DNA of 64,000 nt from Pyrinomonadaceae bacterium (GCA_041746675.1 JBGTGO010000050.1:958-64957); one strand, 5' to 3'; shown: positions 1 to 21,946, counted from the first letter of the stretch. Numbers and translations are program-made. Notes: generated by a model not told the origin, from the sequence alone.

Positions 1-1
1 G

Positions 2-910
2 CTCAACGACCTCAACGGGCAGATAAAGGAAACCGACAAGCGCATCGCGGAAATCGAAAAACAGCTTGCCGCAACGCAAACGCGCGTTTCGACGCAAAGC
101 CGCATTATGCCGAATCAGGAATCGGTCGAGCGGTTCAACACGATGCTCGTCGAACTTCGCAATCGACGCACTCAACTGCTGACTAAATTTCAGCCCGAAG
201 ACCGGCTCGTCAAAGAAGTTGACGAGCAGATTCGCACGACAACCGACGCTCTCTCGAAAGCTAAACAGACGACTTACAGCGAACAGGCTTCGGATTTGAA
301 TCCGCTTCGCCAATCGCTCGAAAGCGAGTTGAACAAAGCCCGCATTGAGCAAGCCGGACGCTATCCGCTGCGCACGAATTTGGCGATGCAGGTAAATTTA
401 TACAGACAGCAGTTGGAACAGCTCAAAGGAGCGACGACGACGAACGACGATTTGACCAGACAAGTAAAAAAAGCGGATGACAGTTATCGGCTTTACGCAC
501 AGAAACAGGAAGAATCAAGAATTTCGGACGAACTCGATAAGCAGAAAGTTTCCAACGTCTCAATTCTCGAAGCGCCGACCGTGCCGCACGTTCCCTTTAA
601 AACCAATCGCCCGCTGACCGTTCTGCTCGGCATCGGAATGGGCTTGCTGCTCGGTTTCGGCTGTGCCATCGTCGCCGAATTTTTCCGCGAAACGATTCAC
701 ACGCCGCGCGAACTCGAAGCCTTAACCGGAATGCCGGTCGTGGCGACTGTGCCGCTTAATTCTAAAGTTCCGCAGCGGCTAAATATAAAAACTTACCGGC
801 AGGCTGAAACGGCGATTGACACGGACGATTCCTCAACCGACGCAGAGGACGAAGATTACGTTATCAAATTTATGAACAGCAAAAATCAATCGATTTATTC
901 AAAACATTAA
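2..910 (+). CDS. Polysaccharide co-polymerase (Wzz/GumC-type chain-length determinant), C-terminal part; 5' end outside window
   Basis: The frame of the 107..910 ORF stays open to the window edge. It has a Q/E/K/R-rich coiled-coil-like stretch, a Pro-rich motif (EAPTVPHVPFKTNRP) and a terminal TM helix (LTVLLGIGMGLLLGFGCAIVAEFF), as in PCP proteins. Kinase-like, OPX and initiating transferase genes follow. Confidence 0.7.
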   Translation, partial: LNDLNGQIKETDKRIAEIEKQLAATQTRVSTQSRIMPNQESVERFNTMLVELRNRRTQLLTKFQPEDRLVKEVDEQIRTTTDALSKAKQTTYSEQASDLNPLRQSLESELNKARIEQAGRYPLRTNLAMQVNLYRQQLEQLKGATTTNDDLTRQVKKADDSYRLYAQKQEESRISDELDKQKVSNVSILEAPTVPHVPFKTNRPLTVLLGIGMGLLLGFGCAIVAEFFRETIHTPRELEALTGMPVVATVPLNSKVPQRLNIKTYRQAETAIDTDDSSTDAEDEDYVIKFMNSKNQSIYSKH

Positions 911-952
911 AGTATTGGTTCGGCATTGCCGGATAGTCGAGAGAAGAATTTT

Positions 953-1576
953 ATGCAGCAGTATTTACAAGTTTTTTTAAACAATATTCAGAAGAAAAAC
1001 CGCAAATCCGGTATGTGTTTCGCCGTCGCTTTTACTTCCTACGAACCGGAAGAAGGTGTCAGTTACGTTACGCAGTCGTTCGGCATCGAAATCGCTAAAC
1101 GCACGGGCAAGCGAACGCTGATTGCCGACGCAAGGCATCTATCGCAGCTGAATATTATGCAGTATGAACGCATCGCGGAAAACTGTTTTCCGACAGATGT
1201 GGCTAATCTCTGGAATCTGCCGCCCGAAGAGGTTCACGGGCAGCAGGAAAACGTCGAAGAAATCGAAGGCGACGAAACCTATTTGCAAACTTTTGCCGAC
1301 AATCCGATTGAAAATTCGATCAACAATCTGCAAACGCTGCGCTACGCTTTTGATTATATTCTGCTTGATTGTCCGGCATTGCGGGTTTCAGACGAAGCGG
1401 TTTTTTTAGCTCCCGAAACAGATGGTGTAATGGTTGTGGTCGAAGCCGACCGAACCAGGCGCGAACAGATTCAAAACGCACAGCAGACGATTGAAGCGGC
1501 AGACGGCAATCTGCTCGGGTTTATTTTGAACAAACGGCAATACACCGTTCCGAAATGGCTTTACAACCGGCTGTAG
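953..1576 (+). CDS. BY-kinase-like P-loop ATPase partner of the co-polymerase, with a degenerate Walker A
   Basis: CpsD/Wzc-C-terminal-like layout: SYEPEEGVSYV where GxxGxGK[ST] is expected, a Walker A'-like TLIADARH, a Walker B-like YILLDCPAL, and GFILNK. I prefer the ATG at 953 over the TTG at 926. Confidence 0.6.
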   Translation: MQQYLQVFLNNIQKKNRKSGMCFAVAFTSYEPEEGVSYVTQSFGIEIAKRTGKRTLIADARHLSQLNIMQYERIAENCFPTDVANLWNLPPEEVHGQQENVEEIEGDETYLQTFADNPIENSINNLQTLRYAFDYILLDCPALRVSDEAVFLAPETDGVMVVVEADRTRREQIQNAQQTIEAADGNLLGFILNKRQYTVPKWLYNRL

Positions 1577-1589
1577 GAGAATTTTTGCG

Positions 1590-2282
1590 ATGAGATTTTA
1601 TTTTATTTTAGCAGTCATTCTGACGATATCGCTTTTTACTTTAACGAGTTCGGCACAGACCGATTTGCCCGTTTCGGCGGTTAAACCGGTGCGAAGCGAA
1701 GCACCGCAGTTAAAGAATTTCGACGGCAATCGCTACCGGCTCAATCCCGGCGACGTGGTTGAAATTATCTATCGCTACTCGCCGGAATTTAATCAGACCG
1801 TCACGATTCAGCCGGACGGTTTCGTGATGCTTCAAATCGTCGGCGAACTAAAAATCGGCGGTTTGACGGGTGAAGAAGCACGGTTGAAGGTTTTAGAAAA
1901 CGCCGGCAAACGCTTGAAAGACCCGGAAATCAACCTGCTGCTCAAGGAGTTTCAGAAACCGTTTTTCGTCGTTTCCGGCGAGGTCGTTCAACCCGGAAAA
2001 TTTGAGTTAAATCAAAGTTATACCGCACTCCAAGCCGTAATGCTCGCGGGCGGTTTCAAAGATTCGGCAAAGTCTTCGCAAATTCTCGTGTTTCGCCGCA
2101 TCAATTCTGACACGGCGGAAGTTAAATTGCTCAACTTGAAAGGCATAAAAAAGACTGACGATTTGGAAAACGATTTCGCGCTCGAACCCGGCGATATGCT
2201 GATGGTTCCGCGCAATACGATTACGAAAGTCGAACGCTACATAAAATTCGCCAACCTTGCCAACATTTTCAGACAATTTTAA
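1590..2282 (+). CDS. Outer-membrane polysaccharide export (OPX/Wza-family) protein, short form
   Basis: Signal peptide (…FTLTSSAQ), Poly_export-type motif YRLNPGDVVEI, and an SLBB-like C-terminal part with EPGDMLMVP. Only 230 aa. Confidence 0.75.
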   Translation: MRFYFILAVILTISLFTLTSSAQTDLPVSAVKPVRSEAPQLKNFDGNRYRLNPGDVVEIIYRYSPEFNQTVTIQPDGFVMLQIVGELKIGGLTGEEARLKVLENAGKRLKDPEINLLLKEFQKPFFVVSGEVVQPGKFELNQSYTALQAVMLAGGFKDSAKSSQILVFRRINSDTAEVKLLNLKGIKKTDDLENDFALEPGDMLMVPRNTITKVERYIKFANLANIFRQF

Positions 2283-2297: not shown

Positions 2298-3746
2298 ATG
2301 ACGACACCGCAGGGACAACTTTCGACACTGGCACTCAAAGCGGCGGATTCGCTGCTGCTGCTGCTCGCCTTATTGCTGGCGGAAATTATCAATTACGCGC
2401 CGGAATCAGAGTTGAATACAGTAGCTTATTCCGTGGATTTTTTGGCGACGCGCGTCAAATTAAGCAACGCGATTTTGTGCGTTTCTTTGCTGATTATCTG
2501 GCACGTCTTTTTTAATATGTGCGGCTTGTATCGCTCGCATCGTCTGCGCGGTCTGCGCGAAGAATTGAAACAAGTGTGGCAGGCGGCGGCTTTGTGTGCG
2601 TCGATTTTGTTGATTGCCGCACAGCTCGGCAGTTGGAAAACGATAGACTTGGGGGTTATTGCGGCTTTTTGGTGTTTCGCGGTTTTCTCGTGCGGCGGCA
2701 TCCGGTTTATGTCGCGCAGATTCTTGCGAATGCAGCGTCGGAACGGACGATATTTGAAGACGCTGCTCATCATCGGCGGCGGACATCGTGCCGAGCAGTT
2801 TGCCGATATGCTCGTGCATCAAAAAGATTTGGGATATCGCCTGATCGGTTTCGTTGACAATGAAAAGATTTACGGCAAACGCGAATTAGCGGGAACCCCG
2901 TGGCTCGGCGGTCTTGAAAATTTAGGGGAAATCGTCGCCCGTGAGGCGATTGACGACGTGGCGGTCACGTTGCCGATAAAATCTCATTACACGGAAATTC
3001 AAAAGGTAATTTCGCTGCTTGAAGAACAAGGCATTGCGACGCATTTGTTATCAGACTTTTTTCCGAGACATCTGGCACGCTGTCAGCCTATGGAATTTGA
3101 AGGCAAACCGTTGCTTTTCTTTCATAGTGCGCCGCTCTTTAGCTGGCGCACCGAAGTTAAACGCCTGATTGATTTAATTGCCGCCGTCGCACTTTTGATA
3201 ATACTCGCACCGGTTTTCGCCGTCATCTCCGTTCTGATCAAATTCGATTCGCCCGGTTCGGTCTTTTTTACGCAGGAACGACTAGGTTATAACAAACGGC
3301 GGTTTCGGATGATAAAATTCCGCACGATGATGATGGATGCCGAAGCACGGATGGAGGAAATTGAACATCTCAACGAAAAGGAAGGTCCAATTTTCAAGAT
3401 AAAAAACGATCCGCGAATCACGCGGCTCGGACGAATTCTCCGCAAGTCGAGTCTCGACGAACTGCCGCAGTTTTTAAATGTGCTGCTCGGCGATATGAGT
3501 TTTGTCGGACCGCGCCCGCTTTCCGTCCGCGATGCCGACCGCGTAGAAGAAAGCTGGCAGAAACGCCGTTTCAGCGTGCGTCCCGGCTTGACCTGTCTGT
3601 GGCAGGTTTCCGGTCGCAGTAATCTCTCGTTTGAACAATGGATGAAACTCGATTTGGAATATATCGACCATTGGTCATTGTTACTGGATTGGTGGATTCT
3701 GCTGCGCACGATTCCGGCGGTTTTGACTTCGCGCGGTGCGGTTTGA
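2298..3746 (+). CDS. Polyprenyl-phosphate glycosylphosphotransferase (WbaP/EpsB-type initiating sugar transferase)
   Basis: N-terminal TM segments, a central Rossmann-like [14 protein letters not shown], and C-terminal bacterial sugar transferase motifs [21 protein letters not shown] and [22 protein letters not shown]. Confidence 0.9.
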
Positions 3747-3758: not shown

Positions 3759-5321
3759 ATGACCAACCGCACTCAAATGCAAAATATACGAAAGATTCGT
3801 CCCGCCCGCAGACGCTCGTCGCTTCTGTGGCTGATACCGACACAGTTGGCGGCAGTTATTACCGCTTTGGGAGCGGCAATGGGCGAAAATCTTTTGCGGA
3901 TGGTTTTACTCGGCGGAATGTTAAGCACGATGCTCGTGCCGCTGATGGTCAGTCTTGAAGCGGGATTGATGGCGATTATGATTTTTGAGCCGTTTCGCGG
4001 ATTTCTGCGGCGGGCACAGTATATTCTCGTTCCATATTCGCAAACCGAGCCGATTCACTTACTTGTTCCCGTTGCTACGTTCGCCGCTTTTACAATCATT
4101 TTATTTCGCCACAAACTCGAAACGATTCGGCTCACACCGCTTGCCGGATGGACAACGGTGCTGGCAGCGATTTGTTTCGTGCAGATTTTCAATCCGCTGC
4201 AAGGCGGCATTTTTATTGGTTTTACCGGTGCACTTTTTTATCTCGTGCCGATGGCTTGGTTTTATTTCGGGCAAACCGTCAAAGAAGAATTCGTCCCGAA
4301 GTTGTTACGCGTCATCGTCGGTCTCGGTTTAATTACGTCGCTTTACGGCGTTTATCAGCTTGTTTTCGGTTATCCGTCTTTCGAGAAATACTGGATTGAT
4401 AACACCGACCTTTACAGCTCAATCGCCGTTTTTAACATTCAGCGTGCTTTGGCGACATTCAATAATTCGGAAGAATGGGGAAGATACATTCAAATCGGCT
4501 GCACCATCGCCATCGGCTTGGGAATGTCGCGTGAGGAAGGCGGCAAGCGTCTTGCGTGGTTCAGTGCCGCCGGTTTGCTGTTTTTAATGATTGCTTTCAC
4601 CGGACAGCGTACCTCGATTTTCGGCGTGATGCTGTCCGGTGCGATTTTATTTTTGACCGGTGCAAAAAGTTTTATGAATGCCGTCGCCAGACTAATGCTG
4701 ATGTGTACTCCAATCGTTTTGATAGTCGCTTTATCCAACCCGATGAGCGACGATGCCGGTTACGAAATTGACGAGAGCGACCGCATCGGCACGATGCTGA
4801 CGCACACGACGAAAGGCACGGTCAACCCGACGGGCGAAGGCAGTTTGGACGCACGATTTGACACCTGGACAAATGTTATCACGCGAGATTTACCGTCAAA
4901 TCCGGTCGGCACGGGCTTAGGCTCGACGACGCTTGCCGCCAGCCGCGAACGAATTGACGATGATGTGCCGATTGACAACCATTTTTTAAGTCTGGCGATT
5001 TCCGCCGGAATTCCCGCCGCACTGCTTCTAATTTTTATATTAGTTCGTGCCGCCATTTTTTGTTTTCGCGGCTGGCGGCGTTCCGAATCCGGGACGAGCG
5101 AAGAGAATTTGTGGCGAATAATGTTGGCTTTGATGGCGGCGTTTATTCTCAATAATTTTTTCGGCACGTCATTTACGATCTACTCGGTCGCACCGATTGG
5201 CTGGCTGCTCGTCGGCTATATCAGTGCCGCTTACGGTAAACAGGAATCAGAGCTTGCCGAAAGCCGCACCGCCGTCGAAGAAAACTCCCGATGGCTGAAC
5301 GCTGAAAGAGATTCATATTAA
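3759..5321 (+). CDS. O-antigen ligase/Wzy-like polymerase family membrane protein
   Basis: Many hydrophobic segments plus one large hydrophilic loop. Has a Wzy_C-like stretch ([20 protein letters not shown]). Sits inside a Wzx/Wzy-type locus. Confidence 0.6.
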
Positions 5322-5325: not shown

Positions 5326-6111
5326 ATGCCTATTTTACAAATGATTCGGACTGATCCGGATAATTCGGTGACGGAAGCTTGCCGGCAATTTCCGTCCGTC
5401 GAATTAACGCTGGAAAGCGGTGTGGCAGACGTTTGGCTGGCACGGCTGGACGCTGAAAACACGGCAGAATTAGAGTTGATCATATCCGCTGACGAGCGAG
5501 CAAGAGCCGCACGTTTTCGGTTTGAAACGGACAAAAAAAAGTTCATCGCGGCACGTGCTATTTTGAGAATCATTCTCGGCAAATATCTGCGAACAAATCC
5601 GCACGAAATTTGTTTTGAATATAATCAATACGGCAAGCCGTCAATCGGCGGAGGACGGCGGACAGAAATCAAATTCAATCTTTCGCATTCGGACAATCTC
5701 GCACTTTTTGCCGTTACTAAAACGCGGGAAATCGGTATTGACATCGAGTGCGTTAAGCCAGGACTTGTTGATGAATCAATGGTGTCGCAGTGCCTGACGT
5801 GGCGGGAAACCGAGCATCTTCAAACACTTTCCGAAACAGACCGGGATTTGTTTTTTTTCGATTGCTGGACCCGCAAAGAAGCCTTTCTCAAAGCGTGGGG
5901 AAAAGGTTTGTCGCTGCCGCCTAATGAAATTGAAACATTATCGCTTTCAAAATTTTCAGCCGGTTTTTTTGAACACGGTGCAGAATCTCCGAAAATCTTT
6001 TGGGCTTTTCAAAAACTTCCTTCAATTTCGGGTTACGCGGCGGCGTTGGCAATTGAAGGCGGAAGCGTGCCGGTAAGATTCCGGCGACTTTCGGCGGCGG
6101 ACTTATTATAA
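5326..6111 (+). CDS. Sfp-type 4'-phosphopantetheinyl transferase
   Basis: Motifs GKPSI, FNLSHSDNLALFAV, EIGIDIE and WTRKEAFLKAWGKGL. Lies immediately upstream of the NRPS genes. Confidence 0.85.
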   Translation: MPILQMIRTDPDNSVTEACRQFPSVELTLESGVADVWLARLDAENTAELELIISADERARAARFRFETDKKKFIAARAILRIILGKYLRTNPHEICFEYNQYGKPSIGGGRRTEIKFNLSHSDNLALFAVTKTREIGIDIECVKPGLVDESMVSQCLTWRETEHLQTLSETDRDLFFFDCWTRKEAFLKAWGKGLSLPPNEIETLSLSKFSAGFFEHGAESPKIFWAFQKLPSISGYAAALAIEGGSVPVRFRRLSAADLL

Positions 6112-6458
6112 TAAATTCGAAAACACGCAGTAAAAACCAACTTTTGACCTCTAAATTTCAAAAGCCGTAAAAAATGAATCAGTTACGTTTATCGTGCTGT
6201 TCATTATTCACTCTGCACTGTTTGTCCGAAAAAATAAATTCCGCTCTCTGCCGTCTTCCTATTTATATTGGCTCGACAGCGTAATTTTTATTGGAAATAC
6301 AACTCTATTATCAATCTCTAAACGCATACGAGAGAGATTCGACCGGAGTTTGCAAAAAATTCACATCTGCTTAAGTCATCATAAAGCGAATCCGAAGCGA
6401 AAGCTCAGGGCTTTTCCGCGTCAGCTATCGGGAAAAAGATTGGTAAAAAATAAAATTT

Positions 6459-11480: not shown

Positions 11481-11485
11481 AAGCT

Positions 11486-12415
11486 ATGAAAGACTTTATT
11501 AAAACGGAAAATTTACAAATGACAACTAGGAAATTCTGCTTTTTCGCTTTATTTTTAAGCTCTGTTCTGCTCGGCGGCTGCGGACTCGACCAGAAAGGAA
11601 TGGTTTTGCTGACCGACAAATCTTACCGTGCGTCGGTCGTCGGAACTAACAATGACGGCTTTACCGTGCCGGACGGAATTTTGTGGAAACAGGGAAAACT
11701 GTATATGGCGGACGAAGGCGGCGGTGCGTTTCGCGTCTGGACGAACGCCGACGATGTAAAAACTCTGGCTGATTCGAGTTTGGGAATTTTGTCGCCGGAA
11801 GATTTGGTAATGGACGCACAAGGGAATATCTTTTTTACCGACGACGATGCCGGCGGCGTTTGGGAAATAAATGACCAGAGAAAACCGTCTCTGCTCGCGG
11901 GAAAAGACAAAGGCTTGATTTCAACCGAAGGAATCGCTTTATCACCGAACGGACAAATTTTAGTCGGCGACGGCAAACAGCATCAGGTTTTCAGCGTCAG
12001 CAAAAGCGGTGATGTGTCTGTTTTTCTCGGAACGGATTACGGCATCACCAAACCGGAAAGTATGGTTTACGACGACAGAGGAAATCTTTATGTCGCCGAC
12101 AACGAAGACGACATACTTTACCTGCTAACGCCGGATATGAAACTCCATCGCCCGCTCGAAAATCGGGAAGGATTTTCCCCCGAAACGATTTGGTATTCGC
12201 ACGGAACGCTTTACATTACCGACAGCAGCAACGGGAAACTCTTTTCTTACAAGCCCGAAGAAGGCTTAAAAACGATTGCCGTTTTCGGCGGAAAACTGGC
12301 GGCGGTCAGCGGCATCACGACCAATGACAACGGCAGCGTTTATCTTTCCATTCAGACAAATCTGAAAAAGAAGCTCGGTTATATCGTGCGACTTGATAAG
12401 GAAATGCAGCCATAA
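11486..12415 (+). CDS. Lipoprotein with six-bladed beta-propeller (SMP-30/gluconolactonase/NHL-like) repeats
   Basis: Lipobox LLGGC. About six repeats of the type G.LY.AD/G.IFFTD/G.LYITD spaced roughly 45 aa apart. Confidence 0.6.
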   Translation: MKDFIKTENLQMTTRKFCFFALFLSSVLLGGCGLDQKGMVLLTDKSYRASVVGTNNDGFTVPDGILWKQGKLYMADEGGGAFRVWTNADDVKTLADSSLGILSPEDLVMDAQGNIFFTDDDAGGVWEINDQRKPSLLAGKDKGLISTEGIALSPNGQILVGDGKQHQVFSVSKSGDVSVFLGTDYGITKPESMVYDDRGNLYVADNEDDILYLLTPDMKLHRPLENREGFSPETIWYSHGTLYITDSSNGKLFSYKPEEGLKTIAVFGGKLAAVSGITTNDNGSVYLSIQTNLKKKLGYIVRLDKEMQP

Positions 12416-12497
12416 CGCGGACATAAAAACTCGTTTTGTTTAACGTCGGTTCGATATAAAATTTAAAGTGTGAAAGTAAAAATATAACTAACCAAAT

Positions 12498-12576: not shown

Positions 12577-12654
12577 TCAAATTTCTTTATGTCGAACTTA
12601 ACGTTGTTCAAGAAAATTTTTGGATAGATCGTCCGATTAAAACTTTCATTTACT

Positions 12655-15600
12655 TTGAATAACCGCCGATTCAAAGTCGTGCGTTCAAAAATACCGCTCG
12701 CTTTGTTATTCGCTTCATTAGCCGCTGACTTTTTGATGAAGAAAAATCTAACCATCATCTTTTTCGCCAACTTTTTCACGCTTCTCTCCGGCGTGGTTAC
12801 GAGCCTTTTGACCGCGTGGGCATTAGGACCGGAAGGTCGCGGCGATTTGGCGGTCATCGTGCTTTATCCGAATGTCGTGGCACTGGCGGTCGGATTCGGT
12901 CTGCCGCAGGCACATCGGTATTTTCTCGCCCGCGAACCCGAAGAAATTTCTCCGCTTTTTTCAAACGCCGTTATTTTTGCCGTCGTAACGGGCATTTTGG
13001 CTTTGGCGGCGGCGGAATGGATTGTGCCGTCGCTCATTGGTACACGCAGCGAAGCCGTAGTTTGGCTGGTTAAAATTTACCTGATAAACATTCCGCTCGC
13101 TTTGCTTTACGATTTGATGGCGGGAATGCTCGAAGGCTCGCGGCAATTTAAATGGGCGGCACTGGCACGAATTGTTTTTTTCGGTATTCAATCCACCGTT
13201 TATTTTCTGCTGTGGAATTTCGGGCTTTTGACGGTTTATACTGCCGCACTGACGATGATTGTCGCACAGACGGCGAATACTTTAACCGCATCAATCAGCG
13301 TTTATCGGGTTTTGAAACCGCGATGGAAACCGTGTTGGATAACCTGGAAAAAATCAATCACTTTCGGATTGAAGTATCACGTCGGCGTTGTTACATCTTT
13401 TACGACTTTGCGGCTCGACCAACTTATGCTCAGCTCGATGGCAACGAGCGTCGAAATCGGGCTTTATGTGATTGCCGTCCGCTTATCCGAAATTACGACC
13501 GTGCTGGCATCGTCAATCGCCGAAGTTCTGATGCCGGAAGTCGCCGCTTCTAAACACGCAGAACGCTCGGCACAACTGCTGCTGCGAAGTTTGCGGCTGA
13601 TGATTTACGTTTATCTGCTGATTTTGATTCCGCTGTTCTTACTCGTGCCGACGCTTTTAGAATTCGCCTTCGGCACAGAATTTCTCGCCGCCGCCGGAAC
13701 GCTTCGTCTGTTGTTGGTCGCTTCGATGGTGTGGAGTATTGGTGCGATCATTATCAGCGGTCTGAACGGCTTCGGCTATCCCGGTTTAAGCACCGTTTCG
13801 CGGCTCTCGTCAGCCGTCGTCACAGTTTTTGCTCTTCTCTACTGGCTGCCGCGATACGGAATTGTCGGTGCGGCACTCTCATCGCTGGTCGGTTACAGCG
13901 TGATGCTCGCCGTCGCACTCTTCTGGCTTGTCAAAAAAAATAATATTCGATTGGGCGAGGTTTTTCGTCCGCGTCTGAGCGATATACCTATGAAAAAGTT
14001 TATAACCGTCTTAAGTTCACGTTTCAACTTGGAAACACAGGCAAATATCATTGATGCACCGAAAAGCGACGGCTTTCACCAATTATTCGAGCGGCAAGCT
14101 GCCGCACAGCCCGACCGCGTGGCGATTGTTTGCAAGGGAGAGCAACTAACTTACGGCGAACTCAACGCACGTGCCAATCAACTGGCACGGCATCTGCGTT
14201 CGCTCGGTGCGATGCCGGAAACTTTGATTCCCGTCTGCACTGACCGCTCCGTCGAAATGGCAATCGGCATTTTAGGGATTCTCAAATCCGGTGCGGCGTA
14301 TGTTCCGATTGACCCAACTTATCCAGCCGAACGCATCGAATTTATGCTGGCGGAAATTTCCGCACCGTTTATCGTTACTCAATCGTCATTCTTACAATCG
14401 TCAGCGATTAAAAAGATTTTGCTTGATACCGACCGGGAACTTATCGCCGAAAATTCGACTGACAATCCGCTGCCGACCGCCGCCGCCGAAAATCTCGCTT
14501 ATGTGATTTACACTTCCGGTTCGACCGGAAAACCTAAGGGAGCGATGTTGACGCACGCTAATCTTTGTCACTACGTGCGGGCATTGCAGCACGAATTTTA
14601 TCTCACGCCCGACGATAAATATCTGCATCTGGCATCAATCGCTTTTTCATCGGCACGACGGCATCTGCTATTTCCGCTGGCACAAGGTGCGAGCGTCATA
14701 ATCGCCGACGAAGAACAGAGAATGGACGCACTGCCTCTGTTCAAACTCATCAAAGAACAGTCGGTAACTGTTTTCGACACTGTTCCTTCGTTTCAGAGAC
14801 ATTGTATGAACGCCCTGCTCGAACTCGACACCGAGCAAAGAAACGATTTATTAAACAACGATTTGCGATTAATCGTTTCGGCGAGCGAACCTTTATTGTC
14901 GGATATTCCCGCGACCTGGATGTTTGAGTTTAAACATCCGGCACGGCACGTTCATATGATCGGACAGACGGAAACGAGCGGCATCGTTTCGATCAATCAT
15001 ATTACAGAAGCTGATGCCGCCGGAGCGGTGCGAACGGTTTCGGTCGGACGTTCGATTGCTAATACTAAAATTTATCTGCTCGACGAAAACCGTCAGCCGG
15101 TCGCACCGGGAAAAGCCGGAGAAATGTATGTATGCGGAAAGGGTTTGGGGCGCGGCTACTTGAATCGCCCGGAATTGACGGTGCAGAAATTCATCGAATT
15201 GTCGGTAGAAAATGAGTCAGACGCGGAAGAATTCAAAGTTCGGCGCGTTTGCCGAACCGGAGATTTCGCGCGATTGCTGCCGGATGGCAGGTTGGAATGT
15301 CTCGGCAGACAGGATTTTCAAGTCAAAGTGCGCGGGCAGCGTGTCGAACTCGGCGAAATCGAAGCGTTGCTCATCAGCAATCAAAATGTCGGTGAATGCT
15401 CGGTCATCGGGCACGAAGATGTGCCGGGAACAATTCAATTGGTCGCTTACGTCGTGTCGCGCCACTCGTCCGATTCGCTCATCGAAGATTTGCGAATATT
15501 GACCAAAGAAAAGCTGCCCGATTACGCACAGCCGTCGGCTTTCGTGTTGTTGAATGCTTTGCCGCTCAACGCGAACGGAAAAATAGACCGCAAAAATCTG

Positions 15601-18600
15601 CCGCGTCCCGATGCTTCGGCTTTCGCAGTGGACACAACTTTCGTCGCTCCGCGCAACGCGACCGAGCGAATCATCGCCGGAATCTGGGCGGAGGTTTTAG
15701 GATTTAACGACATCGGCATCAACGATAATTTTTTTGAATTGGGTGGTAATTCATTGCTTGCCAGCCGTGTTATTTCCCGTCTGCGAAAGGCTTTCAATCT
15801 GGAAATGCCGCTGAGGACAATTTTTGAAGCACCGACCATCGCAGAATTAGCGAAAAAAACCTCATTTTACGGGCGGCAAAACGATTTCGTCCCGCTGAAT
15901 GTCTTGAAAAAAGCCGGAAGACCGGCGGCGATTCCGCTTTCTTTCGCCCAGCAGCGTCTCTGGTTTCTGGCGCAGATGGAAATCGATTCTTCAACTTACA
16001 ATATGAGCGAAGTCGTTCGTTTGGACGGAAAATTGCAGACGGAAGCACTGCGTTCCGCTCTGGAAAACGTCATCGGGCGGCACGAAATTCTGCGAACGTC
16101 TTTCGAGTCAATCGGCGGACAGCCTTCTCAAATCGTCGCTTCCGAAGCCTATGTTGATTTCTCCATCGCCGACTTGACCGATTTTCCATTTGACATGTGC
16201 GAAGCGGAAGCCCGCAAAATCGCTTCTGAATTTTCGGCACGAGCCTTTGATTTGACCGGTTCACCGCTGCTTCGCGTAAAAGTGATTAAACTTCAGGAAA
16301 CTGAACATTTACTCGCCGTCGTCTTTCACCACATTATCAGCGACGGCTGGTCGGTCGGGGTATTTCTCAAGGAATTGAGTGCGTTTTACGAAGCGGAAAT
16401 TTCCGAGTCTAACGCTTCGGTTGCCAAACTGCCGATTCAATACGCCGACTACGCTTTGTGGCAGCAGGAATGGCTGCGAACCGAACAATATGACCGGCAG
16501 TTGGAATTCTGGAAAGAGCATTTGGAAGGTGCGCCCGCGCTGCTCGAATTACCGACCGATTACCCGCGTCCCGCCGTTCAGCGTTATCGCGGGGCGCGAT
16601 GTTCGGCTTTTGTGTCGAATGATTTAACCAAAAAAATAAACGCACTCGGCAGACGCGAAGGTGCGACGCTGTTTATGACGCTTCTTTCGGCTTGGCAATT
16701 ATTGCTTTTGAGATACAGCGGACAGGAACGAATCGTCGTCGGAACGCCCATTGCCGGAAGAACGAAAACGGAAACCGAAAATCTGATCGGCTTTTTCGTC
16801 AACACATTAGCATTAAACGGCGATTTGTCGGGTAATCCGACGTTTAGAGAACTGCTGCGCCGAACCAGAGAACGTGCTCTTGATGCGTATGCCAATCAGG
16901 AACTGCCGTTTGAAAAACTTGTCGAAGCGATTAATCCCGAAAGAAGTTTGAGCTACGCACCTCTGTTTCAGGTGATGTTCACACTGCAAAACGCTCCGGC
17001 AGCGAACAGAGACTTTGCCGATTTAAAGCTGAATCGTGAAAAAACTGCGGGTAAAACGGCTAAATTTGATCTGAGTTTGGACGTTTACGAAAAAGCCGAC
17101 GGACTCGAACTCGAACTAGAATACGACACCGATTTGTTTGCCGAAGAAACCGTCCGGCAGATGCTCGAACATTTCCGCACGATTTTAGAAGCGATAACCG
17201 AAAATGCCGAACAACGGCTGGCGAGCGTTCCGGTTTTGACAGCGAACGAGCGGCATCAATTGTTCGACGAATGGAACAATTACGACACCGAAGTTCCGCC
17301 CGTCTGCCTGCACAAATTAATCGAAGCACACGTCGAGCAAACGCCCGATGCGATTGCCGTCGTCTGGCAAAACGAGCGGCTTTCCTACGCGGATTTGAAT
17401 GCGCGGGCAAACCGTCTGGCACATTTTTTACAAAAACAGGGCGTTAAACCTGAAACTATTGTCGGCGTTTATGTTGAACGTTCGCTTGATATGATTGTCG
17501 GAGTTTTGGGCGTGCTGAAAGCCGGCGGTGCGTATCTGCCGCTTGATGCCAATTATCCGGCGGAGAGATTGCAGCATATGGTCAGCGATGCCGGGGTTTC
17601 GATATTGATTTCGCAAGAAAATCTCAAATCGAAGACGGCGGAATTTTCTTCGCGGCAAATTATTTGTCTCGATTCCGATTGGTCGGAGATCAGCGGCGAA
17701 TCAGCCGATAATCCCGACAGCGATGTCGCGCCCGACAATCTGGCTTATGTGATTTTCACGTCCGGCTCAACCGGCAAATCGAAGGGCGCGATGATTACGC
17801 ACCGCAGCGTTGTCAGTGCTTACGCCGGTTGGGAAGACGCTTATAAGCTTTCGTCGCTGAAATGCCACCTGCAAATGGCGAGCTTTTCATTCGACGTGTT
17901 CACCGGAGATTTGACCCGCACACTGTGCAGCGGCGGAACGCTCGTTTTAGTTCCGACCGAATTTCTGCTCGAACCCGAAAAATTGGAACGATTGATGCGC
18001 GACGAAAAGACAGAGTGTGCAGATTTTGTTCCGGCGGTGATGCGTCCGTTAATCGAGTATCTGGAAAATACAGGGCAAAAACTTGATTTTATGAAGGTTG
18101 TTTCCGTTGGTTCGGACATCTGGCAGATGGATGAATTCCGTCGTCTGCGGCGCGTCTGCCGCGAAGACGCACTGGTCGTCAATTCTTACGGCATCACCGA
18201 AACGACGATTGACAGCACTTATTTCGAGATGACGGCGGAAGACGAAACTGCCGAAGGCATTATTCCAATCGGGCGACCCTTTGCCAACACGAAGCTTTAC
18301 ATACTCGACGACAACCGGAATCTTTTACCGGCACGTGTGCCGGGCGAATTATACGTCGGCGGAAATGGTGTCGGTCGCTGCTATTTGAATCGCCCCGAAT
18401 TAACCGCAGAAAAATTTATCGAATGGATGCCGTCCGGCGAATCCGCCGTGTTGCCGCTCAGATTATATAAAACGGGCGACTTCGCCCGCCGCCGCCACGA
18501 CGGAATGGTTGAAATTTTAGGACGCACCGATTATCAAGTGAAACTGCGCGGTTTTCGAGTCGAACTCGGCGAAATCGAAGCCGTTATTTCAACGCATCCC

Positions 18601-19296
18601 GACGTGAACGAATGCGTGGTCGCACTTCGTGAAGACATTCCCGGAAACAAGCAGTTAATCGCTTACCTGACGACCAAAGAAAATGGAATCAATTCCGCCG
18701 AACTGCGCCGTCACGTCAAATCCCTCCTGCCCGAATATATGATGCCCGCCGCGTTCGTGCTGATGAAAGAGTGGAAGCTGACACCGAACGGCAAAATTGA
18801 CCGCCGCCAATTGCCCGCACCCGAAGACACACTGATTTCCGCCGAAACCGAATACGCCGTGCCGCGCACGCCACTCGAAGAAAAAATGGTCGGGATCTGG
18901 TCGAATCTGCTGCGCCGCGAACACATCGGAATTAACGATAATTTCTTTGATCTGGGAGGTCATTCGCTGCTGGCAACGCAGGTTACGTCCCGCATCCGCG
19001 ATGCTTTCGGGATAGACATTCCGCTCAGAATGCTGTTTGAAACGCCGACGATTGCGGGCTTGGCGGAACAAATTTCTCACTTGATCGGTTCGGAGAATGG
19101 CGAACAATCAAATAGCTTTGAGACAAATTACAAAGAATCCACCGCCGCTACCGTGTCGCCGGAAGATAATGATTCGTTGCAATACGACGCGGAACTCGAG
19201 CGTTTGTTAGCCGAAATCGAAAGCGTTTCGGATGAGGAAGCACAGCAGCTTATTGCGGCGGAATCCGATTTTTCCTATGTTCCTTTAGCAGAATGA
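12655..19296 (+). CDS. Fusion protein: Wzx/MOP-family flippase domain + NRPS modules A-T-C-A-T
   Basis: A single uninterrupted ORF. The TTG at 12655 opens it, but the ATG at 12736 (MKKNLTIIFF…) is the more plausible start. Motifs, in order: the flippase-like membrane region, LAYVIYTSGSTGKPKG, FFELGGNSLLA, HHIISDGWS (16327-16347), LAYVIFTSGSTGKSKG and FFDLGGHSLLA. Confidence 0.9.
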   Translation: MNNRRFKVVRSKIPLALLFASLAADFLMKKNLTIIFFANFFTLLSGVVTSLLTAWALGPEGRGDLAVIVLYPNVVALAVGFGLPQAHRYFLAREPEEISPLFSNAVIFAVVTGILALAAAEWIVPSLIGTRSEAVVWLVKIYLINIPLALLYDLMAGMLEGSRQFKWAALARIVFFGIQSTVYFLLWNFGLLTVYTAALTMIVAQTANTLTASISVYRVLKPRWKPCWITWKKSITFGLKYHVGVVTSFTTLRLDQLMLSSMATSVEIGLYVIAVRLSEITTVLASSIAEVLMPEVAASKHAERSAQLLLRSLRLMIYVYLLILIPLFLLVPTLLEFAFGTEFLAAAGTLRLLLVASMVWSIGAIIISGLNGFGYPGLSTVSRLSSAVVTVFALLYWLPRYGIVGAALSSLVGYSVMLAVALFWLVKKNNIRLGEVFRPRLSDIPMKKFITVLSSRFNLETQANIIDAPKSDGFHQLFERQAAAQPDRVAIVCKGEQLTYGELNARANQLARHLRSLGAMPETLIPVCTDRSVEMAIGILGILKSGAAYVPIDPTYPAERIEFMLAEISAPFIVTQSSFLQSSAIKKILLDTDRELIAENSTDNPLPTAAAENLAYVIYTSGSTGKPKGAMLTHANLCHYVRALQHEFYLTPDDKYLHLASIAFSSARRHLLFPLAQGASVIIADEEQRMDALPLFKLIKEQSVTVFDTVPSFQRHCMNALLELDTEQRNDLLNNDLRLIVSASEPLLSDIPATWMFEFKHPARHVHMIGQTETSGIVSINHITEADAAGAVRTVSVGRSIANTKIYLLDENRQPVAPGKAGEMYVCGKGLGRGYLNRPELTVQKFIELSVENESDAEEFKVRRVCRTGDFARLLPDGRLECLGRQDFQVKVRGQRVELGEIEALLISNQNVGECSVIGHEDVPGTIQLVAYVVSRHSSDSLIEDLRILTKEKLPDYAQPSAFVLLNALPLNANGKIDRKNLPRPDASAFAVDTTFVAPRNATERIIAGIWAEVLGFNDIGINDNFFELGGNSLLASRVISRLRKAFNLEMPLRTIFEAPTIAELAKKTSFYGRQNDFVPLNVLKKAGRPAAIPLSFAQQRLWFLAQMEIDSSTYNMSEVVRLDGKLQTEALRSALENVIGRHEILRTSFESIGGQPSQIVASEAYVDFSIADLTDFPFDMCEAEARKIASEFSARAFDLTGSPLLRVKVIKLQETEHLLAVVFHHIISDGWSVGVFLKELSAFYEAEISESNASVAKLPIQYADYALWQQEWLRTEQYDRQLEFWKEHLEGAPALLELPTDYPRPAVQRYRGARCSAFVSNDLTKKINALGRREGATLFMTLLSAWQLLLLRYSGQERIVVGTPIAGRTKTETENLIGFFVNTLALNGDLSGNPTFRELLRRTRERALDAYANQELPFEKLVEAINPERSLSYAPLFQVMFTLQNAPAANRDFADLKLNREKTAGKTAKFDLSLDVYEKADGLELELEYDTDLFAEETVRQMLEHFRTILEAITENAEQRLASVPVLTANERHQLFDEWNNYDTEVPPVCLHKLIEAHVEQTPDAIAVVWQNERLSYADLNARANRLAHFLQKQGVKPETIVGVYVERSLDMIVGVLGVLKAGGAYLPLDANYPAERLQHMVSDAGVSILISQENLKSKTAEFSSRQIICLDSDWSEISGESADNPDSDVAPDNLAYVIFTSGSTGKSKGAMITHRSVVSAYAGWEDAYKLSSLKCHLQMASFSFDVFTGDLTRTLCSGGTLVLVPTEFLLEPEKLERLMRDEKTECADFVPAVMRPLIEYLENTGQKLDFMKVVSVGSDIWQMDEFRRLRRVCREDALVVNSYGITETTIDSTYFEMTAEDETAEGIIPIGRPFANTKLYILDDNRNLLPARVPGELYVGGNGVGRCYLNRPELTAEKFIEWMPSGESAVLPLRLYKTGDFARRRHDGMVEILGRTDYQVKLRGFRVELGEIEAVISTHPDVNECVVALREDIPGNKQLIAYLTTKENGINSAELRRHVKSLLPEYMMPAAFVLMKEWKLTPNGKIDRRQLPAPEDTLISAETEYAVPRTPLEEKMVGIWSNLLRREHIGINDNFFDLGGHSLLATQVTSRIRDAFGIDIPLRMLFETPTIAGLAEQISHLIGSENGEQSNSFETNYKESTAATVSPEDNDSLQYDAELERLLAEIESVSDEEAQQLIAAESDFSYVPLAE
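12736..13950 (+). other. Wzx/'polysaccharide biosynthesis protein' (MOP superfamily) membrane domain of the fusion ORF
   Basis: About a dozen hydrophobic segments with family-typical stretches (LTAWALGPEGRGDLAV, GIVGAALSSLVGYSVMLAV). Boundaries are approximate. Confidence 0.7.
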
Positions 19297-19321
19297 TTGT
19301 TTTGACAAAACAATCCATTTG

Positions 19322-19362
19322 CCTTGAGAAAACACCGATTTTTCTCAAGGTATCTTTATTTA
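19322..19362 (+). terminator. Rho-independent terminator after the NRPS fusion gene
   Basis: 11-bp perfect stem CCTTGAGAAAA / TTTTCTCAAGG with a 7-nt loop, followed by a T-rich tract. It is preceded by the palindrome TTGTTTTG-A-CAAAACAA (19297-19313). Confidence 0.65.
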
Positions 19363-19531
19363 TTGCCTGTCGCTTTTGTTTGATTTCATCGGTTCATTAA
19401 TCATTGCCGAAACACTGTAAATATCATTTTTGTCAGTGCGGTGAAAAAATTTGAAAGTTCCTGCTAATTAACTGTTTATAACGGCTAAGCAATTAATTTT
19501 GCGTACTGATTTACAAATAAACAGAACAACA

Positions 19532-20737
19532 ATGAAGATTCTTTTTTACAATCATCAGGGAAAAGTCAGCGGTGCGGAACGGGTTATCTTGCTCGTTTTG
19601 AAGCGTTTGAACCGGGACTTATTCGAGCCTGTGATGGTTTGTCCGGCGACAGATACGATGGCTGAAGAAACTGCTAAACTCGGCATTCCGTGCCGGATGA
19701 TAAATCAGTTTGAAGCCCGTTTCACCGTTCGTCCCGACAAATTGATGCACTATTTCGCTTCGTTCGTCCAGACATTACGACAACTGAGAGCCGAAATTAG
19801 CCGCGAAGAACCGGCTGTCATTCACGCCAACAGCATTCGTTCCGGTCTGGTGGCGACGGCGGCGAGTGCGGGGATGAAAATTCCGGTTATCTGGCATTTG
19901 CAGGATGAATTGGGAACTCATCCGATCAGCACTTTAATAAGGATTTTCGCCGCCTGTTTCACGCAAACACGCTTGATGCCGGTTTCCGAAGCGACGGGCA
20001 AAAGTTTTCGCGGAGTTCTTCTGCGATTTTTCGGCAGACATCTGCAAGAGTGTGTCGTTCACAACGGAATCGAGATGGAAAAATTCAAGTTTAACTCAAC
20101 AAATCGTGGACAAATCCGAAAGGAATTCAATCTGAGCGACGATGAACTTGTGTTCGGTATCGTCGGACAAATTACGCCGCGGAAAGGTCAGTTAGAGCTT
20201 TTGCAAACATTCGCCGCAATGCAAAAACAGATGCCGTCAACGCTGCTCGTTGTCGGGGCACCGGTGTTCAATCTGGATTATCTTTACCTGGAAAAATTAA
20301 CAGCAACGGTCAAAAATTTGGGGATCGAAAATCGCGTCAAGTTTCTCGGTGCACGGCGAAACGTGGCGGCAATTATGCAGTCACTCGACGCACTGGTAAT
20401 TAATTCCAAAAGCGAGGCACTTGTTCTGGTGGCAATCGAAGCGATGGCGTGCCGTACGCCGGTTATCGCTACCGATGTCGGCGGCACGAATGAAATCATC
20501 ACGCACAAAGAAAACGGCTGGCTGGTTTCCTTCGGCGACAAACGGGCTTTAACCGACGCACTCTTGACAGTCGGAAGCCAACCTGAACTGCGTCGTCAAT
20601 TTGCGGAAAAAAGCGAAAAAATCGTTACGGCACGCTTGAATGCAGAACATTTCATCAATCAAGTCGAAGATTTTTACCGGCACTGCGGTGCGGGCAAAAT
20701 GCAAGCGATGAGCGAGGATTTGGCAACGCAAAGTTAG
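19532..20737 (+). CDS. Glycosyltransferase family 4 (GT-B fold)
   Basis: MKILFYNHQGKVSGAERV N-terminus and an EX7E-type C-terminal motif (SEALVLVAIEAMACRTPVIATDVGG). I prefer the ATG at 19532 over the TTG at 19499. Confidence 0.85.
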   Translation: MKILFYNHQGKVSGAERVILLVLKRLNRDLFEPVMVCPATDTMAEETAKLGIPCRMINQFEARFTVRPDKLMHYFASFVQTLRQLRAEISREEPAVIHANSIRSGLVATAASAGMKIPVIWHLQDELGTHPISTLIRIFAACFTQTRLMPVSEATGKSFRGVLLRFFGRHLQECVVHNGIEMEKFKFNSTNRGQIRKEFNLSDDELVFGIVGQITPRKGQLELLQTFAAMQKQMPSTLLVVGAPVFNLDYLYLEKLTATVKNLGIENRVKFLGARRNVAAIMQSLDALVINSKSEALVLVAIEAMACRTPVIATDVGGTNEIITHKENGWLVSFGDKRALTDALLTVGSQPELRRQFAEKSEKIVTARLNAEHFINQVEDFYRHCGAGKMQAMSEDLATQS

Positions 20738-20788
20738 ACAAACAATATACCCCACGACTTTATTCGTGCGGTATATAAGGAAACATTA

Positions 20789-21946
20789 ATGTCAAAAGTA
20801 GCTCTAGTTCACGATTATTTTGTGCAGATGGGCGGTGCTGAAAAAGTCGCCGAAGAGATGCACAAAATATTTCCCTCCGCACCGATGTTCACCACCGTTG
20901 ACACTCGCACCGAAGTTCCAGCCGAATTGCGGAATTCTCGCGTTCATACGTCATTTATGCAGCGTCTGCCGGGAATAGAAAAGAATTTTCGACATTATTT
21001 CCCCATTTATCCGTTTGCCGTCGAGAGTTTAGATGTAAATGATTACGACTTGATTTTAAGCAGCTCTTCGGGCTACGCCAAAGGAGTTCGCAAGCGGCAC
21101 GGTGCGATACACATCTGTTACTGCCACACGCCGATGCGTTGGGCTTGGCGGTATGAGGATTATGCCGCCCGCGAGCAGTTCGGCGGAGTCAAACGCTTTA
21201 TTTTACCGCCGATTTTAGCGGGTTTGCGTCATTGGGATTTGCGTGCCGCCGAACAGCCGGATTTTTACATCGTCAATTCGAGCAATGTGGCACGCCGCGT
21301 CAAAGAAATTTACGGACGCGATTCAGTTGTCATACCGCCGCCGATTGATGTCGGGCGTTTTTTACCCGACGAACCGGACGAGGATTTTTACCTGATTTTG
21401 TCACGTCTGATTTCATATAAAAAGTTGGATTTGGCAATTGAAGCCTGCAAAAAACTCAATCGCCGTTTAATCGTCATCGGCGAAGGACCGGACAGAAAAC
21501 GGCTCGAACGGCTTGCCGGAAAACAGACCGAGTTTTTAGGACGGCAGCCCGATCAAGTCGTTACGAGATATGCGAGCCGCTGCCGTGCCTTGCTGTTTCC
21601 CGGCGAAGAAGATTTCGGAATGGTGCCGCTCGAAATTAACGCATCCGGTCGTCCGGTCATTGCATACGGTGCGGGCGGTGCGACGGAAACGGTTGTTGAC
21701 GGCGAAACCGGCATATTTTTTGACGAACAGACCGTTGAATCTCTCATTGCGGCAATTGAAGAATTCGAGAGTCGGCTCTGGAATCGGCGATTGATGCGGA
21801 AACACGCGGAAAAATTTGACACGCAGGTTTTCACCAAGCACGTCAGCGATTTTCTGCACAAAGTCGCTCCGGCATCGTGTGTCCAAGAAATTCCGGAAAC
21901 GAAAGAACGTTCATCTTTCAGCATTCGGAAAGCTCATGCGGATTAA
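20789..21946 (+). CDS. Glycosyltransferase family 4 (GT-B fold)
   Basis: VALVHDYFVQMGGAEKV N-terminus and EEDFGMVPLEINASGRPVIAYGAGG in the C-terminal domain. Confidence 0.85.
   Translation: MSKVALVHDYFVQMGGAEKVAEEMHKIFPSAPMFTTVDTRTEVPAELRNSRVHTSFMQRLPGIEKNFRHYFPIYPFAVESLDVNDYDLILSSSSGYAKGVRKRHGAIHICYCHTPMRWAWRYEDYAAREQFGGVKRFILPPILAGLRHWDLRAAEQPDFYIVNSSNVARRVKEIYGRDSVVIPPPIDVGRFLPDEPDEDFYLILSRLISYKKLDLAIEACKKLNRRLIVIGEGPDRKRLERLAGKQTEFLGRQPDQVVTRYASRCRALLFPGEEDFGMVPLEINASGRPVIAYGAGGATETVVDGETGIFFDEQTVESLIAAIEEFESRLWNRRLMRKHAEKFDTQVFTKHVSDFLHKVAPASCVQEIPETKERSSFSIRKAHAD

Follow-up and report, generated by a model that had tools for sequence, protein, structure and literature searches.

A flippase joined to a nonribosomal peptide synthetase in a candidate Wzx/Wzy polysaccharide locus of Pyrinomonadaceae-like bacteria

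The subject of this paper is a 64,000-nucleotide stretch of DNA from a Pyrinomonadaceae bacterium (GCA_041746675.1, JBGTGO010000050.1:958-64957), called the window from here on. The genes of interest lie at 1-21946 on the plus strand. They include those for a surface polysaccharide of the Wzx/Wzy type and, among them, those for a nonribosomal peptide synthetase (NRPS) of three modules. The flippase (Wzx) and the first NRPS subunit are one continuous protein. The reading put forward here is that this is a Wzx/Wzy surface-polysaccharide locus (Pyrinomonadaceae-like, Blastocatellia) into which the NRPS is functionally integrated, which we regard as an even call. The polymer is probably decorated with peptide in a way not yet described. 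As far as the sequences go, what is new is the physical and evolutionary coupling of the polysaccharide and NRPS machines.

The joined protein is a single open reading frame (ORF) of 2186 amino acids (aa), Wzx::A-T-C-A-T, in which A stands for adenylation, T for carrier and C for condensation domains. Its first in-frame stop is at 19296. The ORF starts at ATG 12736 (MKKNL...), which is the start used by every homologue. A TTG at 12655 was also tried and rejected, since relatives have a 2-nt gap there that puts it out of frame, and the homologues all begin with MKKNL.

The flippase domain belongs to the PST/MOP family and is 52-84% identical to hundreds of stand-alone homologues of 430-440 aa. 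The best 120 in the database are all stand-alone proteins of ~430-450 aa, and their named sources are Blastocatellia or Pyrinomonadaceae. The closest relative, locus L001, was found in four assemblies. It has the same gene order as the window and a flippase that is 84% identical. There, flippase and NRPS are encoded by two genes, for 439 aa and 1757 aa, with an overlap of 53 nt. Aligning the two at the DNA level gives a one-base difference in a run of A's at window position ~13993, where the window has ATGA-AAAAG and L001 has ATAAGAAAAG.

To call the fusion state, each locus was scanned from the flippase start codon to the first stop. By this measure L011, L012, L022, L023 and the window are fused in frame, with ORFs of 2149-2710 aa. 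Three further ones (L091, L092 and L093) came from searching metagenomes with the junction peptide. There are thus eight distinct fused sequences including the window, from Blastocatellia or Pyrinomonadaceae, with a mutual DNA identity of at most 83%.

A three-frame comparison of 19 loci shows what happened at the junction. Unfused flippases end in ...DIPLxxLLxxFRLRFN*, and fused ones continue as ...DIPMKKFITVLSSRFN and then into the A domain. In L001 and L010 the flippase tails are out of frame, and the ancestral tail has been captured by their NRPS genes. Because the window's tail is in the ancestral frame, L001 and L010 are secondary splits, caused by a 1-nt frameshift. A neighbour-joining tree of the flippase domains, built by this simple distance method, places fused and frameshift-split forms in one clade. 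Judged by this comparison, the fusion arose once and has been kept over 63-84% amino-acid identity. It is, on the same comparison, a clade trait that can be undone, and not a fixed requirement.

It could be asked if a sequencing or assembly error in the A-run has joined two genes that in the true genome overlap, as they do in the closest relative. The window and L001 do differ by that single base, and the search for independent assemblies turned up none above 84% identity to the window. Against this stands the same in-frame junction in seven other distinct sequences, which come from different studies. The window's frame also keeps the ancestral ...SRFN tail that unfused relatives have, and it is L001 and L010 that are out of frame. 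Finally, where the NRPS gene of L001 starts with ATG the window has ATA, which would leave a split version without a good start. A sequencing artefact is unlikely to be the cause of the single ORF, and we give that explanation next to no weight.

The topology also allows for the fusion. Wzx proteins have both their N- and C-termini in the cytoplasm. Both termini of the flippase domain are rich in Lys and Arg, and as this positive charge fits with cytoplasmic ends, an NRPS attached to the C-terminus is topologically feasible. A crude hydropathy count suggests ~11-12 membrane segments, which is not decisive and was not used.

The wider family was explored with a flippase-alignment scan that kept one genome per species. 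This delivered 80 loci, with flanks of 10 kb, so parts of some loci are hidden. No cultured carrier is among these 80, be it a strain of Pyrinomonas, Blastocatella, Arenimicrobium or Chloracidobacterium, and 78 of them are titled Acidobacteriota (Blastocatellia, Pyrinomonadaceae, Pyrinomonadales or Chloracidobacterium). Gene order was established by a tblastn search of the window proteins against all loci, nearly all of which are metagenome-assembled sequence.

The widespread order is polysaccharide co-polymerase (PCP), ATPase, outer-membrane polysaccharide export protein (OPX), initiating phosphoglycosyl transferase (PGT), flippase, Wzy, two GT4 glycosyltransferases (GT4a and GT4b), followed by PAP2-NHL-NRPS or by a 4'-phosphopantetheinyl transferase (PPTase). 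PAP2 here is a lipid-phosphate phosphatase and NHL a beta-propeller lipoprotein. In a second order, the flippase has its place immediately upstream of the same NRPS: thioesterase (TE), PAP2, NHL, flippase, A-T-C-A-T. The clade of the window has this second order, with flippase and NRPS fused. In sister clades the flippase has a gene of its own, which immediately precedes the same NRPS, and in basal loci both sit somewhere within one locus. The block of PAP2, NHL and starter module is kept in both gene orders, with PAP2-NHL directly before the starter module or the flippase, and the PAP2 and NHL genes accompany the starter module in all loci compared. In L025, L054 and L022, the exopolysaccharide (EPS) genes directly abut the NRPS block.

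Counting only species-level loci with flanks of 8 kb or more to either side of the flippase, NRPS domains are present within 10 kb of it in 21 of 38, a PPTase in 20 and either of the two in 31. The linkage can be read as tightening stepwise, from the same locus (the L008/L090 type) to adjacent genes (the L004 type), to fused (the window's clade), to an overlapping split. Such tightening is to be expected of partners that interact physically.

These comparisons bear on several things that the initial annotation of this DNA had proposed. It took the NRPS to be part of the pathway and not a chance neighbour, and this is borne out by the eight fusions and by a flippase family that comes with an NRPS and/or an Sfp-type PPTase in most related loci. 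As a result that would speak against this it had named a stand-alone wzx just upstream, together with absence of the NRPS block from otherwise syntenic EPS loci of relatives. Neither is seen. The closest relative has no wzx upstream: PCP is its first gene, preceded by unrelated genes on the opposite strand. The synteny comparison finds the NRPS block present in syntenic relatives, with PAP2, NHL and starter module together in either order.

Several loci carry features of their own. L028 (7260-11308), L036 (7327-11308) and L043 (1124-3887) have two flippase paralogues in tandem, with ~48% and 55% identity to that of the window. These immediately precede a starter-type NRPS with later modules of Gly and beta-Ala-like type. 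L090, of the basal type, has at 10001-23720 PAP2, NHL, A-T-C-T, C-A-T, C-A-T-TE, a TauD-family dioxygenase and a separate A-T gene. The second carrier domain of its A-T-C-T protein has no cognate A domain, and the set suggests a product with a hydroxylated residue that is loaded in trans. In several relatives a lectin-like Laminin_G_3 protein of 660-750 aa lies between NHL and flippase (L004 and L006, ~7650-9950). L146 has an 847-aa Laminin_G_3 protein upstream of its locus.

The features of the window's locus are collected in Table 1. The protein assignments rest on Pfam and NCBIfam profile scans of the gene products.

Table 1. Features of the polysaccharide-NRPS locus in the window, with the profile matches or motifs behind each assignment.
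Feature	Coordinates	Strand	Evidence
PCP (polysaccharide co-polymerase), 3' part only	1..910	+	GNVR 31.1 bits (match at 107-910)
BY-kinase-like P-loop protein, 216 aa, degenerate Walker A	926..1576	+	weak BcsQ/ParA-type Pfam match
OPX, outer-membrane polysaccharide export protein	1590..2282	+	Poly_export 52.4 bits, SLBB_2 43.4 bits
Initiating polyprenyl-phosphate phosphoglycosyl transferase (PGT)	2298..3746	+	Bac_transf 229.4 bits (cut-off 27), CoA_binding_3 64 bits
Wzy-like repeat-unit polymerase	3759..5321	+	Wzy_C 29.0 bits, E=1.1e-6, under the 31.7 cut-off
Sfp/HetI-type 4'-phosphopantetheinyl transferase (PPTase)	5326..6111	+	ACPS 61 bits, AASDHPPT_N 44 bits
NRPS termination subunit C-A-T-TE	6459..10607	+	C 6588-7928, A 7983-9464, T 9564-9743, TE 9810-10577; N-terminal docking helix
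PAP2 integral-membrane lipid-phosphate phosphatase, PgpB-like	10632..11480	+	PAP2 49 bits
NHL-repeat beta-propeller lipoprotein, periplasmic	11486..12415	+	NHL 46.8 bits, lipobox LLGGC
Conserved non-coding block, candidate promoter/leader	12618..12700	+	conservation in relatives
Wzx-type (PST/MOP) flippase domain of fusion ORF	12736..13932	+	Polysacc_synt 43.9 bits (cut-off 28.2)
Fusion junction	13933..14085	+	flippase tail ...DIPMKKFITVLSSRFN runs straight into NRPS; position ~13993 is 1 nt shorter than L001
Starter module A1-T1	14086..15855	+	AMP-binding + PP-binding; code SSRDVAMGIK
C-A2-T2 and C-terminal docking tail	15931..19296	+	C 15931-17262, A2 ~17323-18810, T2 ~18868-19065; Pfam
13-bp hairpin, possible terminator	19320..19352	+	perfect stem and T-rich tail
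GT4 glycosyltransferase a	19499..20737	+	Glycos_transf_1 118 bits, Glyco_trans_4_4 43 bits
GT4 glycosyltransferase b, final gene of locus	20789..21946	+	Glycos_transf_1 92 bits

The layout described in the initial annotation holds up well. The ORF table has an unbroken run of twelve plus-strand genes at essentially the coordinates given there, the Pfam scan agrees with the gene order from PCP through Wzx::A-T-C-A-T to the two GT4 genes, and the three larger gaps (6112-6458, 12416-12735 and 19297-19531) are where they were said to be. The N-terminus of the NRPS ORF was named as the sole flippase-like sequence, and no other flippase-like gene is present in 1-21946. Two of its calls need qualification. 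A gene for what was called a kinase-like ATPase is there, but its product is probably a pseudo-kinase partner of the PCP: it reads ...YEPEEGVSYV..., so that the lysine of the GxxxxGK[ST] Walker A motif of an active BY-kinase is absent. It scores 58.7 bits on TIGR01007 against a cut-off of 108, and all other tyrosine-autokinase models of NCBIfam are likewise under their cut-offs. The A' and B motifs are retained, there are just two C-terminal tyrosines, and the L146 orthologue has no Pfam match whatever. The Wzy-like call is backed by orthologues in relatives that carry PF04932 in precomputed tables, but the window's own protein stays below the curated Pfam threshold (Table 1).

With these provisos the polysaccharide half, as judged by its profile matches, passes most membership tests for a Wzx/Wzy pathway. 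The initiating PGT, the flippase and the export pair of PCP and OPX are all there. No stop interrupts the reading frame of the PCP as far back as base 2, which means that the start of the window truncates the gene; its orthologue in L146 is a protein of 541 aa with Wzz and GNVR domains that heads its locus. An exact copy of the OPX protein (100% identity) exists in the database. After 21946 come a mannose-6-phosphate-isomerase cupin on the opposite strand and then a copper-resistance block, which puts the end of the locus at the second GT4.

The peptide half is, by its motifs, a standard type I NRPS except for the starter domain. C, A, T and TE domains score far over their Pfam cut-offs. Both C domains have HHxxxDG (HHIISDG among them), the three T domains have the GGxS serine motif (GGHS), the TE has GRSFG and GDH, and the A3, A8 and A10 motifs are present in the A domains. 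The C domain of the fused subunit is nearest to the elongation C domains of Txo1/Txo2 and TycC. The catalytic domains look functional. A cognate Sfp-type PPTase for such an NRPS is encoded in the same run of genes; HetI is its best NCBIfam model, with 152 bits, under the equivalog cut-off.

Both subunits have docking sequences. The fused one has a C-terminal docking tail ...AELERLLAEIESVSDEEAQQLI with the acidic end ...LLAEIESVSDEEAQQLI, and the TE subunit starts with ...LSPAKRVLLEMKLKE, an N-terminal docking helix. This gives the order Wzx-A1-T1-C-A2-T2, then C-A3-T3-TE.

Substrates were predicted from the Stachelhaus positions, which were read by alignment to the Phe-activating A domain of GrsA. 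The anchor is what we take to be the GrsA sequence, and it reads back its own code correctly as DAWTIAAICK. For Orn, Val, Gly, beta-Ala and Asn/Asp, the comparison likewise used the codes that we take to be established. A2 reads DVGDSGSIDK, and DVGE[VI]GSIDK in relatives, which is the classical Orn code; the predicted substrate is Orn-like. A3 reads DAFFIGGTFK, and DAFF[ML]GVTFK in relatives, one residue off the classical Val code, and is predicted to load Val or Ile.

The starter is different. In A domains, Asp235 binds the alpha-amino group of the substrate. A1 reads SSRDVAMGIK, with a near-invariant SSRD[LV]AMGI(K/R/S) in relatives, and at position 235 the window and all orthologues examined have Ser. 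Two motifs are variant (A4 AFSSARRH and A5 MIGQTETSG), the remaining adenylation core motifs are present, and the domain passes the amino-acid-adenylation model TIGR01733 with 383.7 bits against a cut-off of 317.4. With Asp235 missing and the other core motifs kept, A1 most likely loads an acid of some other kind than alpha-amino acids. That this would be a plain fatty acid is made less likely by the pocket, which is polar and basic (S, S, R, D). The starter code is shared by basal loci in which the downstream modules differ, and the later modules vary between clades (Orn, Val/Ile, Gly, beta-Ala-like and Asn/Asp-like). An invariant starter with variable later codes fits a constant linking unit followed by a variable peptide.

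It follows that the first unit of the 'three-residue product' in the initial annotation is most likely not an amino acid. The pathway as a whole, as then interpreted, finds partial support: the flippase-NRPS linkage, the fusion clade and the missing upstream wzx speak for it, its product needs amending as to the first unit, and its proposals that the TE off-loads onto a sugar or lipid and that the EPS carries a peptide are predictions.

Two attempts to place the starter more widely can be mentioned here. The top non-acidobacterial matches to the L008 NRPS (from Gloeobacter, Planctomycetes, Chloroflexi, Longimicrobium and Hyalangium) were rejected as relatives of the starter because they have an ordinary FDxS A4 motif. 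In a HMMER search with the starter A domain, the best 150 matches were all giant multi-module NRPSs, ranked by summed scores, which makes this search uninformative about carriers outside the class or among cultured strains.

How the parts could work together can be sketched as follows. The PGT and the two GT4 enzymes are equipped to build a lipid-linked repeat unit, and Wzy, PCP, pseudo-kinase and OPX to polymerise and export it. The sole flippase is joined through its cytoplasmic C-terminus to the starter module, and by this fusion and the matching docking sequences the whole assembly line would be held at the flippase. The PPTase would prime the three T domains, after which A1 would load a common carboxylic acid without an alpha-amino group, A2 an Orn-like cationic residue and A3 Val or Ile. 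At the cytoplasmic mouth of the flippase, the acyl-dipeptidyl chain would be joined to the undecaprenyl-diphosphate-linked repeat unit. This could happen by TE transfer onto a sugar hydroxyl or amine, or the starter acid could be the glycan's own carboxylate. The decorated unit would then be flipped, polymerised and exported. On the periplasmic side, the PgpB-like PAP2 protein would recycle the lipid diphosphate, and the NHL lipoprotein might bind or process the product.

The PAP2 protein is nearest to E. coli PgpB (5jwy, E=9e-7), and its catalytic motifs are all present: K(x5)RP, in a non-canonical spacing, PSDH and SRx5Hx3D. These features are in keeping with a lipid-diphosphate phosphatase that works at the outer side of the inner membrane. 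The best solved relative of the NHL protein is the ligand-binding propeller of the PknD sensor (E=5e-16).

A number of observations weigh against an integrated pathway that decorates a glycan. Besides the TE, no obvious peptide-to-sugar transferase gene was found in the locus, and Pfam scans found no gene in it for uronic-acid or amino-sugar biosynthesis. Seven of the 38 well-covered loci have neither NRPS nor PPTase within 10 kb, and in some loci there is only the PPTase, after which come a GH5 enzyme and genes that are unrelated. In the closest relative, flippase and NRPS do their work as two split genes. Then there are the three loci, L028, L036 and L043, in which two tandem flippase paralogues lie beside the NRPS. 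These may reflect duplication and specialisation, which would count against glycan decoration if one copy serves the peptide and not the glycan.

The same tandem paralogues lend weight to the main rival, in which the NRPS makes a free peptide or lipopeptide (a siderophore, signal, surfactant or antibiotic), the MOP protein is its exporter, and the EPS is co-located as a shared component of matrix or biofilm. The MOP superfamily includes exporters of drugs and metabolites, and transporters are common in NRPS clusters. The TE has the standard Ser/His set-up of a hydrolase, and L004-type loci have no visible PGT, Wzy or GT4 within 10 kb of the flippase-NRPS block. What makes us rate this explanation as less likely, though by no means negligible, is the flippase itself. 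The fused flippase is orthologous (~50-55% identity) to the one that sits between PGT and Wzy in loci with the canonical order. It is also the sole flippase in the loci of the window and its closest relative, so that taking it away as a peptide exporter would leave the Wzy pathway without one. The abutting EPS genes of L025, L054 and L022 also speak against a mere exporter. A separate explanation holds that PAP2 confers self-resistance, BcrC-like, against an NRPS product that targets undecaprenyl diphosphate, which would make this an antibiotic cluster beside an EPS locus. BcrC-type resistance to bacitracin is a precedent, the PAP2 protein is PgpB-like with intact catalytic motifs, and its gene is tightly linked to the NRPS and not to Wzy. 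However, a product of three units is much smaller than known binders of undecaprenyl diphosphate, any Wzy pathway needs recycling of its lipid carrier anyhow, and both the flippase fusion and the NHL lipoprotein are left unexplained. We consider it very improbable.

Within the integrated reading itself there is a sub-case in which A1 adenylates a carboxylate on a lipid- or nucleotide-linked sugar (uronic, lactyl or pyruvyl). The NRPS would then replace Mur-type ligases, building a two-residue stem that ends with hydrolysis by the TE. The missing Asp235 fits with this, as do the near-invariant polar and basic pocket (S, S, R, D) with its second Arg at 238 and the position of the starter module, which is the one fused to or beside the flippase. 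No gene for an unusual starter acid was found in any locus either. Conversely, we know of no A domain that acts on a lipid-linked glycan, the locus has no uronic-acid, lactyl-ether or pyruvyl-transferase gene, and the pocket residues alone do not name the starter substrate, which is a weakness of the integrated reading in general. The sub-case seems improbable to us. Taken one step further, it would have Blastocatellia make a peptidoglycan-like exopolymer along a route that nobody has described so far. The NRPS at Wzx would build a stem of starter acid, Orn and Val/Ile directly on the lipid-linked unit, with A1 adenylating the glycan carboxylate, and the result would be flipped, polymerised by Wzy and exported. 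The free amine of Orn would serve for charge or for periplasmic cross-linking at the site of action of the NHL lipoprotein. This too is a speculative and rather unlikely scenario.

Parts of the integrated pathway resemble systems that are well known. Like the Wzx/Wzy pathways of the E. coli group 1 capsule, colanic acid and Myxococcus EPS, the locus has a PGT, GT4 enzymes, a PST-family flippase, a Wzy-like protein, a PCP with BY-kinase-like partner and an OPX, all on one strand. Unlike in those pathways, the genes here are interleaved with a PPTase, three NRPS modules, PAP2 and the NHL lipoprotein, the flippase is fused to an NRPS and the kinase partner lacks the Walker-A lysine.

When lipid II is made, the sugar on its lipid carrier receives a short peptide on the cytoplasmic side of the membrane, after which a MOP-superfamily flippase takes over. 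The logic of that pathway (MurC-F, MraY, MurG, MurJ) is alike in that a peptide on a lipid-linked sugar is then flipped. The locus here has no Mur, MraY or transpeptidase genes, however; it has a thiotemplate NRPS instead of ATP-dependent Mur ligases, as well as Wzy polymerisation and export by OPX.

The Dlt system, which D-alanylates teichoic acids, decorates a surface glycopolymer with the help of an NRPS-type adenylation enzyme and a carrier protein. An adenylation enzyme and carrier at a glycopolymer is also what is seen here, and DltA models score 251-280 bits on the A domains, which is below cut-off. No MBOAT protein (DltB) or DltD is among the twelve products according to Pfam, and unlike Dlt, the locus has C domains, three modules and a TE that would build a peptide.

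Mycobacterial glycopeptidolipids arise from an NRPS peptide and glycosyltransferases, and the TE of Pks13, which transfers mycolate to trehalose, is a precedent for off-loading onto a sugar hydroxyl. NRPS and glycosyltransferases leading to a surface glycoconjugate are the likeness with glycopeptidolipids. These are small lipids exported by MmpL, and neither a lipid-linked repeat unit nor any of Wzx, Wzy, PCP and OPX has a part in making them, whereas 1-21946 contains no MmpL and no FAAL. The sole MMPL-related match in the window is a weak secondary one, on an AcrB-type RND pump at 33621-36812.

EPS loci of the exosortase A (PEP-CTERM) type contain an acyl-CoA ligase and an acyl carrier protein. 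An adenylate-forming enzyme and carrier protein in an EPS locus (TIGR03098) is thus something the two have in common. The match here is 193-201 bits against a cut-off of 592, there is no exosortase in the locus, and full condensation modules and a TE are present.

The only parallel found in the open-access literature, and one that rests on genetics, is carenaemin of Collimonas arenae Cal35. This is a short PKS/NRPS peptide, and its production and secretion genetically require a Wzy-dependent locus for sugar repeats (PMC8313283). Its authors propose that the peptide is placed on a lipid-linked repeat that is flipped by Wzx, which is a proposal and not a demonstration (PMC8313283). The two carenaemin loci are far apart on the chromosome, with no fusion reported. 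Here there is one locus, with a fusion and with the full set of genes for polymer export. No description of a flippase-NRPS fusion, of the starter code or of an EPS-NRPS cluster in Acidobacteria was found in that same literature.

Some non-coding DNA within the locus is also of note. The block at 12618-12700 lies ~40-120 nt upstream of the flippase start and consists of TTTTGGATAG-N5-CCGATTAAAACTTT...TTGAATAACCGCCGATTC, with a CCGATT(A/C)AAA direct repeat inside. It is kept in the window, L001, L010 and L011, and its flanks are not. The block occurs nowhere else in the window (chance expectation 0 matches) and could be a promoter, operator or leader. A scan of 1-26000 with Rfam gave no matches, the block included. 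The hairpin at 19320-19352 lies 24 nt downstream of the NRPS stop, ahead of the GT4 genes. It is a possible end of a transcription unit, in which case the two GT4 genes may be transcribed separately. A scan for promoters and terminators found sites in the numbers expected by chance, and the hairpin is only a lead.

The remainder of the window has further features. The copper-resistance block runs from 23177 to 37805 and has a P-type ATPase with YHS/HMBD, an outer-membrane factor, a CusB/HlyD-type adaptor, the RND pump named above, a cupredoxin, DUF305 proteins and a multicopper oxidase. Its GC content is 0.42-0.46, compared with 0.46-0.50 for the EPS-NRPS locus. From 48001 to 52000 the GC content falls sharply to 0.32-0.36. 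Two minus-strand ORFs there, at 48795-49787 and 49793-50536, lack Pfam matches, and the stretch may have been acquired recently. An unrelated myo-inositol-1-phosphate synthase lies on the minus strand at 44069-45319, adjoining two ORFs without a Pfam match and an ECF-type sigma factor.

Surface polysaccharides and nonribosomal peptides are usually treated as separate classes, made by separate machines. The conserved fusion of a flippase with an NRPS starter module is strong comparative evidence that both machines act as one throughout a class of abundant soil Acidobacteria. If the polymer is indeed decorated with peptide, glycans could acquire peptides by a new route, in addition to those by Mur ligases, Dlt and ATP-grasp enzymes. 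It would also explain why an NRPS product can require a Wzy pathway, as carenaemin does (PMC8313283). For genome mining it would supply a rule, in that an NRPS beside wzx and wzy may stand for one conjugate and not for two clusters. The near-invariant starter signature without Asp235 marks a class of substrates that is as yet uncharacterised. Finally, the alternation between fused, adjacent and overlapping split forms is a natural experiment on the tethering of assembly lines to the membrane.

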